From sequence record SRR20825019_2074: a DNA stretch of 37,646 nucleotides. The stretch is one strand, 5' to 3'. Positions 25,928 through 34,666 of this stretch are shown piece after piece. The notes under the pieces were generated by a model. The model searched no databases. It was not told the origin of the DNA and saw only the letters and a program-made list of their open reading frames with translations. The stretch's first letter is position 1; each line of letters begins with the position of its first letter. Position numbers and translations under genes: made by a program.

Positions 25928-28900
25928 CTATTCTTCTTCTGGAATTATGGACTCTGGAATACTGTCGGGTGCATCGATTGGAACGGAACCTTCCATGTCC
26001 GGGTCTATCGGGGGGATTGATTCATCCATTACATCCTCCTCTTCATCCACAAATTGGGAGAATTTGTCAATGTACTCATTGAAGATAATGGTTTCCGACT
26101 CTGCCAATTCCTTGTCCCCATTTTCAATCAAAATGTCAATGTTTCTACGGTAGGCCTGCATATCGGATAGGATGTCGTCTATTTTATCGTATTGCTCATC
26201 CAAAGGAATGTTGGCGTAGTATTCCAAATGTTCTTGATAGACCTTTTTGAGCTTGCCGAAAAGCTCTCGGGCTTTTTGGGTTTCGCCCACTTTATAATAG
26301 CCATCTACAAATGGTTCAACAAAGGCATAGAAATAATAATGCTCCACGGGCATGTTTTCCATGGCAATATTGATGACGTCCTTGGCCTCATCAATCTTGT
26401 TTTCTGCAATCAAGGTTTCCATCAGGCGGGCCAAATTGCTTCTAAAAGAAAGTCCCTGTGAACGCGTTTGTGGATCGTGATAGATCTCATCGCTTCCTGC
26501 ATTGCCCCATTCCCAATCCTTGACAATATCGTACATCAGATCGGTATCGATTCGGCCCATTTCAAAGGAATTTCTGTTTGGCGTTTTGATGGGGACCAAT
26601 TTGTACACAAGTCCATCGAGTTGCAGGTAATCCTTCATCCAGATGTATTCTGCACTGTCAAAACTACCTCCGGAAAAATAGATGGGGCGCTTCCAATCGT
26701 TGTTGGCGATGAGGTCCAACATCAATATCCTGTTCTTGGGAAGTGCACCGGTTGGCAGGTCAATATCGATATAATCCACGATCAAGGCAGAATCCTTCTC
26801 TTTGACAAGGCCACTTTCCAATACATTTTGTTTGTTGACAGGAATCCTGATCTTATTGGTGGGGTAGTACACAATATCCAAGGTGCTTTCGGAGTAATTG
26901 CTTAAATCTGCTCCCTGATTGGTGAGTATATGCCTGAATTTAGTTTGTGGCTTATCACTATCCACCCAATTGATGAAGTCCTTAATGTCCCACCTGTTGT
27001 CGGTAATGCCTTGGTAATAGATGGCATCCCTAGTTCCGTACCTATACTTGTCATGCGTTAATTGCGATGGAATGGCATCGCTTTCGTACGCTTTTCGCTT
27101 CATCTGGTCAATGTACCAATCTGTTGCAAAAAGGCTGGTATTGACCACACGGACGTCTGTTCTATAATTCTCGATTTCTTGGGCGTACCATATTGGGAAG
27201 GTGTCATTGTCCCCGATTGTGAACAATATGGCTCCCGCATCTTCTTTCGTGGAATCTAGATAAGCTTTTGCCGTAGCTGGGGCCGTATATCGGTCAGATC
27301 TATCATGATCGTCCCAGTTTTGATAGCCCATCAGCAATGGTACCGCCAAAAGACATATAGTTGTGATTGCCGGAGCCGCTATTTTGGACGAAACCAATTT
27401 TTTAAATTCTTCAAACAGTCCGTATACACCGATACCTATCCATATACAGAATACATAGAAGGACCCTACCAAGGAGTAATCCCTTTCCCTAGGTTGAAAG
27501 ATGTATGGGTTGGTATAAAACTGTATCGCAAGCCCCGTGAACATAAAGAACACGAAGAGCACCCAAAACTGTTTTGGGTTTCTGGAAACTTGGAAGACAA
27601 TACCTAAAATTCCGAGCAATAGCGGTAGGAAGAAATAGGTATTTCGACCCTTGTTATTTTTCCAGTCACTGGGGAGGTTTTCTTGGCTGCCCAACCGAAT
27701 ACTGTCAATAAAATTGATGCCGCTGAGCCAGTTTCCGTTTTCATCGTACCTGCCCTGCATATCATTTTGTTTTCCAACGAAATTCCACATGAAATAACGC
27801 ATGTACATATAGCTGAACTGGAAATCGAAAAGGTACTCTACGTTTTGCCAAAGGGTAGGGGGTTGCACCTCAATATATTCACCGAATTCCCTTAAAAAGC
27901 GGATATATTGTTCTGTATCCAGTTCTCCTTGCGAATAGGCTGTTTTGAATTGGTTTACCGCCTGTCGAAGATCGTTATTGGATATATATTCCGATTTTAT
28001 CTTGAATTCCAGGGCGCCAAAATATTTCATATAGTTTTCGGCGTGTTGATCGCTCCACATTCTGGGCAAAAACCCTACGTGCTTTTCGTTGGGGCCTGGA
28101 ATAGCTCCTTTGTAATGGTTTACGATAACATATTTGCCCGTTTCCAAGTCTTTTTCGTACTTCGGGCTATCATCCCTATCTTCTCCCGAAGTCGCAAAGG
28201 TGTCCGAGTAATAGGCTCCGTAAACAGGACTATCTACCCCTGGATATTGTTCCCTGTTATAGTAGGCCAGTAGCGCTCGGGCATCGGCCGGGTTGTTCTC
28301 ATTGACAACGGTTTTTGCATTTGCTCTAATGGGAAGCATCAACCAAGAAGAGAATCCTAGGATAAGGAACATCAAACAAAGTACAACAATATTGGCATTG
28401 TAATAATTGTGTTTTCGGGTGTATCTCAAACCGAAATAGAAAGCGGCCACAAATAATAGCCCCATGATGATGGATCCCGAATTAAAGGGTAGCCCAATTT
28501 CGTTTATAAAGAATACCTCGCTCCAACCAAATAGTTCCAGAACGTAGGTCAAGGAGAATTTGTAGACCAAGATGAGTACCGCTACAACAATTATGTTGGC
28601 CAATAAGAAGTTTTTAACCGTGGTGGTCTTATATTTTTTGAAATAGTAGAGCAATCCTATGGAAGGAATCGCCAAGAAGCCCATGAACTGTATACCAAAG
28701 GTAAGACCTATTACAAAAGAGATGAGCATGAGCCATCGGTGACCTCTAGGGTCTCCCAAATTATCTGTCCATTTTAGGCCCAACCAGAGCAATAATGCCA
28801 TCATAAAACTGGCCATGGCATACACCTCGGTCTCTACAGCGTTGAACCAAAAACTATCTGAAAATGTAAATGCAAGCGCTCCGACCAAACCACTGCCAAG

Positions 28901-29266
28901 TATGGCAATAGCCTTGCTATCGGTCATTTCATTCTTTTTGGCAACCAACTTTCCTGTTAAGTTGGTAATGGTCCAGAAAGTAAACAATACGGCAAAAGCA
29001 CTGGATACAATGGATACAGCATTTACCATAAGAGCTATTTTCGTAGGGTCGCCAAAGGCGAACATGGCGAAGAAGGCACCAATCATTTGCAATAATGGAG
29101 CCCCGGGCGGGTGCCCTACTTGTAACTTTGCCGAAGTGGAAATGTATTCACCTGCATCCCAAAAACTTCCTGTGGGTTCAACGGTAAGGGCATATACTAT
29201 AAACGCAATGGCGAAGGAAGTCCACCCAAGGATGGTATCCCATTTTTTGAAGTCTTTTGCAAACAT
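25928..29266 (-). CDS. DUF2723 / TMEM260-like GT-C membrane glycosyltransferase
   Basis: SFWDAGEY, GHPPGAP, WFNAVETEVY, PRERDY, FTIGDNDTFP motifs; many TM helices and a helical C-terminal domain. Confidence 0.9.
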   Translation of the reverse strand: MFAKDFKKWDTILGWTSFAIAFIVYALTVEPTGSFWDAGEYISTSAKLQVGHPPGAPLLQMIGAFFAMFAFGDPTKIALMVNAVSIVSSAFAVLFTFWTITNLTGKLVAKKNEMTDSKAIAILGSGLVGALAFTFSDSFWFNAVETEVYAMASFMMALLLWLGLKWTDNLGDPRGHRWLMLISFVIGLTFGIQFMGFLAIPSIGLLYYFKKYKTTTVKNFLLANIIVVAVLILVYKFSLTYVLELFGWSEVFFINEIGLPFNSGSIIMGLLFVAAFYFGLRYTRKHNYYNANIVVLCLMFLILGFSSWLMLPIRANAKTVVNENNPADARALLAYYNREQYPGVDSPVYGAYYSDTFATSGEDRDDSPKYEKDLETGKYVIVNHYKGAIPGPNEKHVGFLPRMWSDQHAENYMKYFGALEFKIKSEYISNNDLRQAVNQFKTAYSQGELDTEQYIRFLREFGEYIEVQPPTLWQNVEYLFDFQFSYMYMRYFMWNFVGKQNDMQGRYDENGNWLSGINFIDSIRLGSQENLPSDWKNNKGRNTYFFLPLLLGILGIVFQVSRNPKQFWVLFVFFMFTGLAIQFYTNPYIFQPRERDYSLVGSFYVFCIWIGIGVYGLFEEFKKLVSSKIAAPAITTICLLAVPLLMGYQNWDDHDRSDRYTAPATAKAYLDSTKEDAGAILFTIGDNDTFPIWYAQEIENYRTDVRVVNTSLFATDWYIDQMKRKAYESDAIPSQLTHDKYRYGTRDAIYYQGITDNRWDIKDFINWVDSDKPQTKFRHILTNQGADLSNYSESTLDIVYYPTNKIRIPVNKQNVLESGLVKEKDSALIVDYIDIDLPTGALPKNRILMLDLIANNDWKRPIYFSGGSFDSAEYIWMKDYLQLDGLVYKLVPIKTPNRNSFEMGRIDTDLMYDIVKDWEWGNAGSDEIYHDPQTRSQGLSFRSNLARLMETLIAENKIDEAKDVINIAMENMPVEHYYFYAFVEPFVDGYYKVGETQKARELFGKLKKVYQEHLEYYANIPLDEQYDKIDDILSDMQAYRRNIDILIENGDKELAESETIIFNEYIDKFSQFVDEEEDVMDESIPPIDPDMEGSVPIDAPDSIPESIIPEEE

Positions 29267-31213: not shown

Positions 31214-31254
31214 AAAAAACCCCGCAAAGTCAAATTTGCGGGGTTTGTTTTTTT
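31214..31254. terminator. Bidirectional terminator
   Basis: AAAAAACCCCGCAAA-GTCAAA-TTTGCGGGGTTT then T-rich tail, between convergent genes. Confidence 0.88.
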
Positions 31255-31267
31255 AAATATTTTCTAA

Positions 31268-34200
31268 TCAGTTTTTGTTCACCCGGTAAGTAATTCCCCT
31301 GTTGGTGATCACTCTTCCGTTCTTCACGGTCAATGTCGCTTGATCGGAGGCTAGGGGAGTGCAGCTTCCGGACGAATTGGAAACAAGCACACGATATATG
31401 TAACTGTCTTTTGCGGAATCCGGAGTTGTAAGGGTCAGGTTTGCGCTAGATGTTCCCGTGTATTCACTTCCGTCGGCAATAGGCACAAAATTACTTCCGC
31501 CATCGGTACTTACCTGCCATTGGTAGGTGTCCACATTGCTGGCCACAACCGAAAGGTAGCCATTGTTTCCCACAACCACGGTTTGGTCGGTTGGTTGTGT
31601 GGATACGCTAAATGGTGTTACGGTAATGGTTTGCTCCACGTCCAGGGTGTTTCCTGCCGCATCGGTAATGCGATAGGTACGTGTAATGGTTTCGGGGTCG
31701 CTTCCGCCATCACTTACATCGCTCACAAAGGTCACCGTTGGATTTGGATCACAATTGTCAGCTTCGTCGGTTATTACGGTTACATCTGGTGTTGGAATAT
31801 CGGAAGCACAATTTACCGTTATTGGCGAAGGTGTACTGGAAGTTGGAGCTTCCGTTTCTACCGTTATTGTTGTTGTGGCAGCCAAATCAGGGTAAGGTGG
31901 GTCGCCTGGCATCCCCCCATACTCCACCAAATATCCTTTGGGCTGATAATCGCCGCTTGCGGCCCCCGTATTGGATAAGTCGTTCCATGAACCTGGTAGT
32001 CCTACTCCTGGAGCTGTTATATGTGCATAATCTTCATTTCCGGAATTGTTGGGTTCGCCGGAGTTCCAGAATTCATATCCAAATGCGGTTCCTCCGCCAG
32101 TGCCTCTCCAAAAGAGAGTTCCAGTTTCGGGTCCGGTTACCCAATACCAATCTCCTTCGGTCGTGGCATCACTTGCCCCTATCCATCCCGCTCCCGGTGC
32201 CTGCGAGCCCAAGAGGTCGGACTCGTCCTGAACAGAGATTGTGGCCAAATATCCCTGTAGTCCATAAAATGTTCTTAGCGCGGCCGCATCCCTGGCGGCT
32301 GTCCATGTGATTCCCTCTGCGGCCACGTATTCATAATAGTGTCCTGTCGATTCCAAATAGTTGGCCTCGTTCATTACAATGGAAAACGTCCGTGTATCCC
32401 CACCGTTTACAGTTGCGGTGGTTTGGAAAATCACACCAGCAATTGCGGCTTCAAATTCTGCCAAGGTCGCGGGTCCCTCCAAGAACAATCTTCCTTCTGA
32501 GGTGTCCCAACTAGCTGTTATGTTAGGGTGTGTTCCTGTTAAGCTCAATACATCGCCTGATACATCGTAGTTGGAAGTAATTTGAATATAAACAGCGTCC
32601 AAGGTACTACTGTCGGTATCGGTGATCTCTACGGTTTCCACCACGGGAATTGGGTCGCCTGGACAAAATGTTTGGTCTCCGGTTGCGGTTATGGATGGTG
32701 GGTCATTATCGTCAAAAGTATCGTCCCTAAAATCTAAATCCCCTCCCGAGGTAACATCACCATCAGAGTCGGGCAGCATCAAAGAGCCTCCGTTAGTGTT
32801 CAGTGGATTGTCTATGGTGCCTCCTGGGTCGGCGTATCCGGTTGTGGTGTCGATATTATTGTCCAAGCCATCATTATCGCTATCCGACCCTGAAAGTGTC
32901 AAGACTGCTTCGGTGGTGTCGGAGGTCCCATCATTGTCAGAATCCAAATCCATAAAATCAGGTGCTCCGTCCCCATCGGTATCTACGGGGGTGATTCCGC
33001 TGCTTTCGTAGGCGTCGTCTAGTCCGTTGTTATTGGCATCTATTCCCGAAGGTGCTATATAGTTTAAAGATGTTTGAGCCTCCACATTGTCCGGTATGCC
33101 ATCTCCGTCACTGTCCAAATCCTGATAGTTTGGAATACCATCACCATCTGTGTCAACCGTTGTGCAATCAACCGCGCCACCGTAGCTTGCACCATGGACA
33201 CGAGCTCTGGTTTGATAGGCTATTACCCTAAAGGATTGAAAATTACTTTGTGATACATTAAAAGTTATTTCGGTAATCGACCCAGAGGGAATTGCGGTGG
33301 CATCAGCTAAGTAAGTGCCATTGGAATATTGGATTTGCATATCCGAAGTGCCCGAGGCTGCCGATAAAAACACGCTAACAGTAGTCCCTATTGGAATTGG
33401 GTTGGCAAACTGAAATGATATAATGGATTGATCTTCATAGGTAGATGTGGAGTTATAGGCATATGAGGTGCCTGGGTTACCTTCCGCATTGGATGGGTCT
33501 CTAAAATATTGAACGTTGGTCGCTGTTTGCACAAAATTCCCTGAGACTCCTCCACATTCATCAACATCCAAAATACCGTCATTGTCGTCATCGACATCAG
33601 CTGTATCAGGTACACCATCACCATCAAGGTCGGCACTACTTGCGCTACATGTTGAATATAATTTGGAAAAAGGGATGTTCTGTTTTGAAATGGACGGACC
33701 TTGATATGCTACAGATAGATTTTCTCCTCCTCCATTTTCAAAGAATAGCACGGTGATATCGTGAAGTCCGGGTGATAAGGTTATGGTTCCCGAACGTTCT
33801 TGGGAGCCATGTGCGCCATCGTTGTTCACTACCTGGGCCCCGTCGATGTATAATTTGGAGCCATCATCTGAAGTCGTGTAAAATGTGTAGCTTCCCTGTG
33901 TATCTATTTGGATGAATCCCGTGTACCTAATGCTAAAGTTATCGGTATCTCCTGGGTCTTCTTGATTTTGAAGCGCATCTACATCAAAACTAGTATAAGT
34001 ACCGGATCCGAGATATCCCGATATTGGGATGTTGTCCACAGTGCTTCCGGAAGGTGAACTGTCGTAAAATTCAAAGTCAACCTCACCATTACAAATGCCG
34101 GAGATTCCCTTCACAGCTGCATTATCTATAAAATATTGCTCGCTATTATTGTCGTTGTCCATTCTAACCCTAATCTCTAAGGTGGAGTTGGCAGTGCTGG

Positions 34201-34666
34201 AAAATCCAAACCCATATGAAGAGTTTAAAGGATCGGAATTTGAACCGGATGCATTTACAAATTGTTGCCAAGAACCTCCATCAACCCGGTATTCGCCAAT
34301 CATATAATCACTTCCATTTTCCATATCATTTGGGTCATCCACCCAGGTGTCCATGCTAAAACCAATATAGTCGTATCCGGTAATGTCAATGGGGTTGACC
34401 TGCCAGGTCCGCCCTGCATCCAGATTTCTACCTCTTAACGAATTGTTTATTACCGACAACTTATTTCCTCCATTGGTAGTCCATGACGATAAAGAAGGTC
34501 CAGTAGCTGTTCCATTTTCTGTCCCATTTCCATATGTGAAGTTTTCGCTCCAAATAGTGGTCTGTGAAAATGAAAGAAAGGTTCCCAACAAGAAAAATGC
34601 CAATAGTAGCATCCATCCACTGGGAAAATGATTCATCTTTTTATTAAAGAACGAGGTTGTGCCCAT
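31268..34666 (-). CDS. Large secreted adhesin-like protein: PA14, Ca-binding DxDxDG repeats, C-type lectin, HYR-like and Ig-like domains
   Basis: Signal peptide ending FSFSQ; PA14 DNFSIRYTG...[10 protein letters not shown]; repeated DxDGDGIPD; CTLD GHYYE...WIGASD...EPNN...[25 protein letters not shown]...YQWQ...YRVLV. Start could be 34636. Confidence 0.88.

Follow-up and report, generated by a model that had tools for sequence, protein, structure and literature searches.

The sorting signals described for Bacteroidota's type IX secretion system (T9SS) are C-terminal domains (CTDs) of types A, B and C, seven-stranded folds of about 70-100 residues according to the relevant sections of PMC10202324 and PMC10994853, and for the type C CTD of ChiA about 100 aa are stated to be needed (PMC10202324). 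The 'short' CTDs of Prevotella intermedia, 48 in number, have retained motifs B, D and E, and from the spacings stated in the pertinent part of PMC11969387 we estimate that they are about 45-60 aa long. The portion of PMC12618676 dealing with type B substrates reports that SprB secretion needs all five type B motifs, that in F. johnsoniae three orphan type B substrates share a single orphan carrier, and that static complexes of type B, SprF-like and PorE-like proteins are formed; operons of the Fjoh_3952-3951-3950 type, as presented there, are of the same kind as the locus considered here, with a type B substrate, a PorP/SprF and a PorE-like protein. We analysed a stretch of 37,646 nt from sequence record SRR20825019_2074 (the window, by which we mean the whole stretch), in which the open reading frame (ORF) list and its translation gave, at 31268..34666 on the minus strand, the gene for P0001, an exported adhesin-like protein of 1132 aa. 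P0001 ends in a tail of 18 residues instead of a CTD, and this tail belongs to a class of closely similar C-terminal tags found on adhesin-like proteins of marine Flavobacteriaceae, many of which are encoded within one conserved T9SS type B locus.

Positions 31268-31324 correspond exactly to the stop codon and the last 18 residues of P0001. These residues follow the last Ig-like domain (residues ~1021-1114, 31325..31606; all the features of P0001 are on the minus strand), which AlphaFold2 modelled as a beta-sandwich with a predicted local distance difference test (pLDDT) value of about 90 for model residues 1-95. They include the core of the tag (residues 1119-1129, 31280..31312) and the last three residues, NKN (31271..31279), after which the C-terminus is free. 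The tail has five K+R and neither D nor E, on a protein whose mature part has an isoelectric point of 4.05 and contains 158 D+E versus 33 K+R. Just past the stop codon there is a bidirectional terminator-like hairpin with a 12-bp stem (31217..31246, assigned to neither strand), and its position right behind the stop indicates that the C-terminus of P0001 is genuine and that no truncation occurred. The first-pass annotation had described a short basic tail on a very acidic protein that lacks a type A or B CTD, a lipobox and a barrel, and this description was confirmed in every point.

No known sorting or anchoring signal fitted the tail. Pfam gave nothing at the C-terminus of P0001 at E<=1, and NCBIfam gave neither TIGR04183 nor TIGR04131 nor any other sorting-signal model, either on the whole protein (E<=1) or on its last 44 residues (E<=10); the tail has no model in either collection. 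The type A models (TIGR04183 / PF18962), absent from the C-terminus of P0001, matched at nine places elsewhere in the same genome, and the type B models (TIGR04131 / PF13585 CHU_C), absent from the whole of P0001, at 15. Just 18 residues lie beyond the last Ig-like domain and they form no folded CTD sandwich of ~70-100 residues, nor is there a PorP/SprF gene directly downstream of P0001 or between successive tailed genes in clusters. As regards lipoprotein anchoring, the N-terminal Sec signal peptide (~35 residues, ...LSFS/QTT, 34562..34666, read by inspection of the translation) has no lipobox cysteine; as regards barrel anchoring, the domains of P0001 are PA14, lectin-like, HYR and Ig, and its C-terminus, ...RVNKN, has no aromatic beta-signal. 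In sortase- and exosortase-type tags a short motif precedes a hydrophobic transmembrane stretch, behind which comes a basic cluster. The tail has no hydrophobic stretch, being mostly polar apart from the five K/R among its 18 residues, and no NCBIfam model of such a tag (LPXTG, PEP-CTERM, GlyGly-CTERM) matched it. Short C-terminal peptides read by a receptor, such as the beta-signal of outer-membrane proteins (BamA) and the PTS1 tripeptide (TPR domain of PEX5), resemble the tag in being linear motifs with a constant spacing to the free C-terminus, and a protein with TPR domains is encoded beside the tailed genes. The tag differs from them in having no terminal aromatic as the beta-signal does, in being unrelated to PTS1 and in having soluble multi-domain carriers and not barrels. 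Type B CTDs have conserved motifs such as PNGDG, IFNRWG, LPxGxYFY and GYxYLxR. We also considered a derivation from the IFNRWG hairpin of type B CTDs, with which the tail shares I-x-N-R, and rejected it as unsupported: against a profile made from 12 type B CTDs of the genomes studied, the tail reached -0.8 bits, a value equalled or exceeded by 94% of 2000 shuffles. A full-text literature search, with subscription journals and supplements outside its reach, found no paper containing the motif strings; within the same scope, the portions of the T9SS sorting-signal literature that were covered deal with CTDs of types A, B and C and with 'short' ones of type A, and with no such tag.

Compared with the type B CTD, the tag has the same place, at the extreme C-terminus of Sec-exported adhesin-like proteins of Flavobacteriaceae, but it is about 15-22 residues long against ~90, it has no match to a hidden Markov model and resembles a type B profile no more than its shuffles do, the model shows it disordered where the CTD is a seven-stranded sandwich, and the genes bearing it have no PorP/SprF of their own. 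With the type A, short and type C CTDs it shares a C-terminal position on surface or secreted proteins of Bacteroidota and a basic, alternating, beta-strand-like end; it differs from them in having no match to any model, and, going by the parts of the papers cited above, from the short CTDs in their motifs B, D and E and from the type C CTD in its ~100 aa.

The distribution of the tag was determined with the pattern I-T-N-R-x-[IV]-T-Y-R-V back-translated to DNA, with the reversed pattern as a control; since natural variants escape it, this DNA pattern undercounts the tails. In a sample of Flavobacteriaceae it gave 112 matches in 60 of the 401 genomes (48 of 302 genera), the reversed control giving 0. 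In a phylum-wide sample, also of 401 genomes, it was present in three of the 28 genomes of the same family and in none of the 372 genomes from 56 other Bacteroidota families. A scan of one genome per prokaryotic species found at least 127 stretches with the pattern, and the 80 loci fetched from these came from marine Flavobacteriaceae (Maribacter, Aquimarina, Arenibacter, Flagellimonas/Muricauda, Zobellia, Cellulophaga, Tenacibaculum, Croceitalea, Eudoraea and Robiginitalea among them), except one chance match in a metagenome-assembled genome of Patescibacteria. Six matches fell on viral contigs, one being a genuine tail at a contig end and the other five occurring by chance, and there was no sign of phage involvement. 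The first-pass annotation had mentioned ITNxxIxxRV-like endings on other flavobacterial proteins; these are in fact numerous and stand on unrelated exported proteins.

The motif lay 1-4 residues ahead of the stop in 31 of 32 matches from the first 30 loci and 2-3 residues ahead in 76 of 80 from a second set, that is, 1-4 residues ahead in 107 of the 112 fetched copies when both sets were pooled. Exactly three residues, [N/K]-[K/P/R]-[N/D], followed the V in 154 of 174 distinct tails, whose consensus was [T/I/L]-[V/I]-[K/R]-[V/A]-x-[T/S]-[V/I]-I-T-N-R-[R/K/G]-[I/V]-T-Y-R-V-[N/K]-[K/P/R]-[N/D], with I-T-N-R-x-[IV]-T-Y-R-V near-invariant. In short form the tag reads T-V-I-T-N-R-R-I-T-Y-R-V-[N/K]-x-[N/D]-COOH; P0001 carries a variant of it that has the core [VI]-I-T-N-R-x-[IV]-T-[YF]-R-V followed by NKN, and the change of Y to F was seen in 14 of 60 tail-bearing Flagellimonas-type relatives. 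The conservation concerns the peptide and not the DNA: 129 copies of an identical decapeptide were encoded by 129 different 30-mers, all synonymous codons were used and third-position identity was 0.415, which excludes gene conversion or a DNA-level element. These codon patterns show purifying selection on the tag peptide.

The five exceptions among the 112 fetched copies were one chance match and four copies, one from the first set and three from the second, in which an extra domain of ~118 aa lies behind the motif (L002:1152-1499, minus strand, from genome G231; L054:431-787, plus, L078:43-399, minus, and L113:431-790, plus, all from Aquimarina). This domain, which ends in CGC..FY[EK][LI] and was found behind two different carrier types, was modelled as a seven-strand sandwich at pLDDT ~75-90, the preceding tail staying disordered. 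It had no Pfam or NCBIfam match, it was single-copy in the one genome checked, and Foldseek gave weak matches to carbohydrate-binding-type sandwiches, none of them at E<=0.001. We considered it as a fused receptor or CTD and set this aside, as no Rosetta-stone evidence was obtained.

We modelled residues 1021-1132 of P0001 with AlphaFold2 on an alignment of 51 sequences, namely that of the window plus 50 of the 53 modules found (left out were L017, which duplicates the window, L053 and L121). The tail was modelled without secondary structure, at pLDDT 53-59, beside the confident Ig sandwich. The same Ig domain was found with HMMER in 7487 representative proteins (E<=0.001, 1.84 billion representatives searched); among the 150 matches listed out of these 7487 none had the tail, and many of the top ones finish in T9SS CTD-like sequence when their ends are read by eye. 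Because it is modelled as disordered and is absent from the 150 listed matches, the tail is, as far as the model goes, a separate linear motif and not part of the preceding Ig fold, and the modelled disorder would be compatible with folding on binding, as in the strand donation to a partner that the first-pass annotation had suggested. Prediction of a complex of the Ig and tail module with the PorP/SprF (residues 26-318) and PorE-like (22-530) proteins of the same genome scored 0.00 in a single run made with no controls and with the supplied alignments unused, a score that speaks neither for nor against binding.

The tag is preceded by at least eight unrelated domain types. We scanned 45 of the 48 canonical tailed proteins of 20 loci (the three longest were left out), and found Calx-beta, right-handed beta-helix, SdrD_B, CUB, FG-GAP, cadherin-like, Big_9, LamG and PA14 domains, and further DUF11, GEVED, CshA, DUF7933, Ig_7 ('CHU_C associated'), HYR, F5/8-C and LTD. 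CHU_C or Por_Secre_tail was present in none of the 45. By inspection, all the 47 tailed proteins with a complete N-terminus had a signal-peptide-like start, typically ending in A/G-Q. Because of these domains and these starts, the tag can be assigned to exported adhesin-like proteins, predicted as such from their sequences, in the place where proteins of such build normally bear a T9SS CTD.

The genes of these proteins lie in a conserved setting. We studied closely the 20 loci, which had been chosen for having at least two nearby matches, and 17 of them had the same order: a protein with a type B CTD (CHU_C), a PorP/SprF and a PorE-like protein, behind which come one to four tailed genes and a giant gene. 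Next to the giants stand, on their far side, another type B protein (~675 aa, Big_9/cadherin) and another PorP/SprF. The PorP/SprF protein of the locus (~317 aa) matched TIGR03519 above cut-off; the PorE-like protein (~645 aa) has TPR, PD40 propeller, CarboxypepD_reg and OmpA domains and matched the CHU_0125_OmpA and T9SS_PorE models over its full length, below their cut-offs. In a tally of the ORF tables of the 17 loci, the interval from the PorE-like gene to the giant contained 41 ORFs of 90 aa or more, all of them tailed, 39 canonically and two with a variant. The natural variants VITNRRITHRVNKN, VITNKKITFRVNKN and VISNRRITYRTKKN were observed in this interval (L192:14086-17592, minus strand; L037:2203-5592, minus; L038:12551-16861, plus), and natural variants show which positions tolerate change. 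P0001 itself is 60% identical over 768 aa to tailed proteins lying within the PorE-like and giant-fibre locus of other genera.

The giants (complete ones measured 2958 and 4261 aa) carry a signal peptide and, at the N-terminus, a conserved domain (QTTVTL.DQCNCEVLSGT...). Across genera their N-terminal ~80 residues show 54-90% identity, and of the 63 family genomes with this domain (401 sampled) 62 have it in a single copy. Their repeats are genus-specific and not conserved between genera, being collagen-like G-x-x in several, and no recognisable CTD was found on them.

The same linkage was found in the sample of 401 family genomes. Of its 112 tails, 74 were within 25 kb of the best PorE-like match of their genome (in 48 of 60 genomes) and 78 within 25 kb of the start of the giant, and the tail nearest to that start was at most 1.5 kb from it in 40 of 50 genomes, with a median of 708 bp. 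Tail and giant N-terminal domain were both present in 54 genomes, the tail only in six, the giant only in nine and neither in 332, and a PorE-like ortholog of at least 51% identity was present in 57 of the 60 tail-positive genomes versus 13 of the 341 tail-negative ones; these counts come from related genomes of one family and describe the pattern, without testing it. The six tail-only genomes were fragmented or incomplete assemblies, or had an internal-variant copy only (G231).

Homologous adhesins can end either in the tag or in a type B CTD. In the tail-negative genome G047, the gene straight after the PorE-like gene encodes 2133 residues that are 58% identical to tailed family 0 (the commonest, with Calx-beta, SdrD_B and beta-helix) up to the point where the tail starts (...NSTSEF...); past this point the G047 protein has ~980 more residues and a type B CTD, and its own PorP/SprF gene comes next. 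Among the 120 HYR-Ig relatives of P0001 listed, 60 had a canonical tail, two had variants and 26 matched a crude type B pattern, the other 32 being partial or, in many cases, type B-like at their ends by reading. From the G047 homolog and these mixed endings it follows that the tag and the type B CTD with its carrier are alternative endings of homologous adhesins. Two tail-negative stretches, L194 (G047:C82:85000-104900) and L193 (G182:C4:493000-512900), have their PorE-like genes within runs of type B CTD and PorP/SprF pairs, and G047 and G182 are natural comparison strains for tag function.

The first-pass annotation had proposed a minimal sorting signal defining an unrecognised export or anchoring route. 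Its first half stands, in that the signal is minimal, shared, modular and C-terminal. A route apart from the T9SS does not agree with the data, because the 74 of 112 family-genome tails within 25 kb of a PorE-like gene are near a gene that itself stands behind type B CTD and PorP/SprF genes, and because the homologous adhesin of one tail-less relative carries a type B CTD with its own PorP/SprF.

We consider, with a probability of roughly 0.6, that the tail serves as a short linear tag for sorting or docking, by which CTD-less adhesins are tied to a T9SS-linked fibre system. The tag would mark CTD-less, Sec-exported adhesins of some marine Flavobacteriaceae as accessory parts of one conserved surface system, made up of a type B protein, a PorP/SprF, a PorE-like peptidoglycan-binding protein, one to four tailed adhesins, the giant fibre protein, and a second type B protein with PorP/SprF. 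It would be disordered until bound to a conserved component of this system, probably as a small beta-hairpin, and binding would give the adhesin its passage to the cell surface and hold it there. The tag would do the job that is done, in the homologous adhesin of the tail-less relative, by a type B CTD and a dedicated PorP/SprF carrier, and the gene of P0001 would be an orphan copy, encoded off the locus and served in trans. We infer that the tag binds, that it has a receptor and that its carriers are exported through the T9SS.

Several points weigh against this proposal. The choice of the 20 loci favours clusters, and the relatedness of the genomes means that the association is overstated; tail, PorE-like ortholog and giant could be mere markers of one clade. 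Away from the locus there were 38 of the 112 tails, both copies of the genome of the window included. The giant was present without a canonical tail in nine genomes and the PorE-like ortholog in 13; of eight such tail-negative loci that were fetched, one (G376) had the variant tail ITHRV, another (G181) is a record that ends within the next gene and six had no tailed gene. The near-invariance of the core is partly due to ascertainment, most tails having been found by the pattern itself, and the variants recovered via synteny or homology (ITHRV, ITNKKITFRV, ISNRRITYRT and NRNTT[YF]RV) show that the core is not invariant. The four copies with an internal motif and the extra beta-sandwich indicate that a free C-terminus is not always required. 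Finally, that the tag may substitute for a CTD is read from architecture and synteny, there being no detectable similarity to type B CTDs.

In one more specific form of this proposal the tag itself would be a minimal T9SS signal, read by the PorP/SprF carrier of the locus in or at the SprA translocon, the carrier then anchoring the protein. The tailed proteins do occupy the place of T9SS substrates, with Ig_7, GEVED, HYR and cadherin-like domains that usually precede T9SS CTDs; PorP/SprF genes flank the locus, the G047 homolog has a type B CTD and its own PorP/SprF, and the orphan carrier of F. johnsoniae, as reported in the cited part of PMC12618676, is a precedent for service in trans. However, known T9SS signals are folded seven-stranded domains, and the sections cited above describe motifs B, D and E as kept in the short CTDs of P. 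intermedia (PMC11969387) and all five type B motifs as required for SprB secretion (PMC12618676), whereas the tail did no better than its own shuffles against the type B profile. On this balance we regard the reading as doubtful.

In the other specific form, the tag would be a dockerin-like peptide fastening interchangeable adhesins to the giant fibre, for example to its N-terminal domain, or to one of the type B proteins, with the adhesins either crossing the outer membrane as passengers of their partner or attaching after export. The closest linkage of the tag is indeed with the giant gene, in distance as in co-occurrence (54/6/9/332), and an N-terminal domain that is conserved and single-copy would suit the receptor of a near-invariant peptide; moreover, the number of tailed genes per locus goes from zero to four and their kinds vary, as for exchangeable cargo, and the giant too has no recognisable CTD. 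What tells against such docking is that the repeats of the giant are unconserved between genera and so would not provide a repeated docking array for an invariant tag. In addition, G201 has the giant and no tailed gene in the stretch fetched, and the giant is also present in seven other tail-negative genomes besides G376 with its variant tail, a minority of which were inspected at the locus. We know of no reported piggy-back export through the T9SS. Dockerins are folded, calcium-binding duplicated modules of ~70 aa in Gram-positive bacteria, where they attach enzymes to the cohesins of cellulosome scaffoldins. Like them, the tag is modular, occupies the C-terminus of many exported proteins that are otherwise unrelated and has its genes next to that of a giant repetitive surface protein, but it has no sequence likeness to them, and no cohesin-like repeat was identified in the giant. 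We judge this docking, taken together with either of its two routes, to be unlikely.

Periplasmic retention or processing, in which the tag would bind the TPR domain or the beta-propeller of the PorE-like protein or be a protease or quality-control site, is improbable. In its favour, TPR domains and C-terminal-processing enzymes commonly read C-terminal peptides, the tailed genes begin straight after the PorE-like gene, the constant spacing between motif and C-terminus fits recognition of a free end, and a dibasic RR could act as a cleavage site. Against it, the carriers are large proteins of several domains (lectin, cadherin, PA14, Calx-beta), a build typical for surface adhesins, and have T9SS substrates as their homologs; in two genomes, G193 and G237, tails and giant occur without any PorE-like match of at least 51% identity. 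A tail with no sorting function, either an inherited end-piece that caps the structure or an element of the DNA, for instance a recombination site that paralogs share, is scarcely credible, for although many tailed genes are tandem neighbours and both tails of the genome of the window follow the same Ig-like domain, the tag follows at least eight unrelated domains, lies outside the modelled Ig fold, is absent from the 150 listed matches of that domain and is not conserved as DNA. Both of these readings are less likely than a minimal T9SS signal or a docking peptide.

The chance that the tag is a new mechanism is substantial. We tentatively suggest, short of even odds, an unrecognised branch of T9SS-linked surface assembly, in which a disordered peptide of ~15 residues would replace the 90-residue type B domain and its PorP/SprF. 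It would load interchangeable adhesins of lectin, PA14, cadherin, Calx-beta and beta-helix types onto a giant fibre, collagen-like in nature, for whose building a module of PorP/SprF and PorE-like proteins would be responsible.

The genome of the window (G000) also has the locus, broken in the assembly at the repeats of the giant and distributed over contigs C24 and C21. Contig C24 encodes a type B protein (1073 aa), a PorP/SprF (318 aa), a PorE-like protein (649 aa) and the N-terminus of the giant with collagen-like repeats; the PorP/SprF is 81% identical to that of locus L039, and for the PorE-like protein the identity is 73-75%. The end of C21 has the 3' end of the giant, a type B protein (675 aa) and a PorP/SprF. 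The giant gene is split inside its collagen-like G-x-x repeats between C24:2-763 (locus L182) and the C21 end (locus L183:14155-14961), and its N-terminal domain reads QTTVTLQDQCNCEV... There is no tailed gene inside the locus of this genome, both its tailed genes being orphans on contig C82. Heading the locus is a type B protein (L182:4085-7306, minus strand, contig C24) in which ~13 near-identical, very acidic repeats with cysteines (DCDGDGV.NGKEKEDGTDPLDPCDF...), similar in kind to thrombospondin type 3, stand ahead of cadherin-like domains, and it is possible that this acidic array is a docking scaffold for basic-tailed proteins.

The second tailed ending was found by a six-frame scan of this genome (4.4 Mb, 111 contigs) and reads ...NIRVQTIITNRKVTYRVN, after the same kind of Ig-like domain. 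In its gene (C82:251360-253217, plus strand, locus L184) no ATG yields a signal peptide. With a TTG that lies 37 codons upstream of the first ATG, the product would begin MTYIRFLIGLIALVLILF..., a signal-peptide or anchor-like start, which suggests, from the DNA, that the gene may start at this TTG and encode a hydrophobic N-terminus.

Upstream of the Ig-like domain and the tail, P0001 has a PA14 domain (residues 238-334, 33665..33955; Pfam PF07691, E 5.3e-17), a weak C-type lectin-like region (residues 803-883, 32018..32260; PF00059, Lectin_C, E 0.003, below the curated cut-off) and an HYR-like domain with four cysteines (HYR_4C, residues 942-1016, 31619..31843; PF23237, E 2.9e-06). The names given to its Flagellimonas/Muricauda orthologs are limited to 'PA14 domain-containing protein', 'hypothetical protein' and 'C-type lectin domain protein'. 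A Flagellimonas aurea record has a nearly identical Ig and tail module, which places the organism of the window in Flagellimonas. Downstream of the P0001 gene there are a convergent gene for 279 aa and a gene with a CxxCxxCC domain, and two genes downstream, at 25928-29266 on the minus strand, one for a 1112-aa TMEM260-like (DUF2723) membrane protein of the O-mannosyltransferase type (Pfam E 6.3e-70), a neighbourhood not seen beside the tailed genes of other genera. As partners of the tail, the CxxCxxCC protein, the TMEM260-like glycosyltransferase and RimP/NusA were considered and rejected, being housekeeping or miscellaneous genes not conserved beside tailed genes.

Secretion and anchoring in Bacteroidota have so far been explained by folded type A, B and C CTDs and by lipoprotein export, and the tailed adhesins have none of these. 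They occur in ~15% of the Flavobacteriaceae genomes sampled, they are missed by predictors of T9SS cargo that rely on CTD models, and their present annotation is just 'PA14 domain-containing' or 'hypothetical'. If the assembly branch suggested above exists, the tag would be the smallest sorting or docking signal known in Bacteroidota, and marine Flavobacteriaceae would have a cellulosome-like system of 'plug-in adhesins'. The tag would make it directly testable what a T9SS carrier or anchor minimally must recognise. Should it target or dock its carriers, surface display in marine flavobacteria would gain a portable handle of very small size, and the tag would name the cargo of the conserved giant-fibre locus, which is likely relevant to the attachment of these bacteria on algae, particles or animals.

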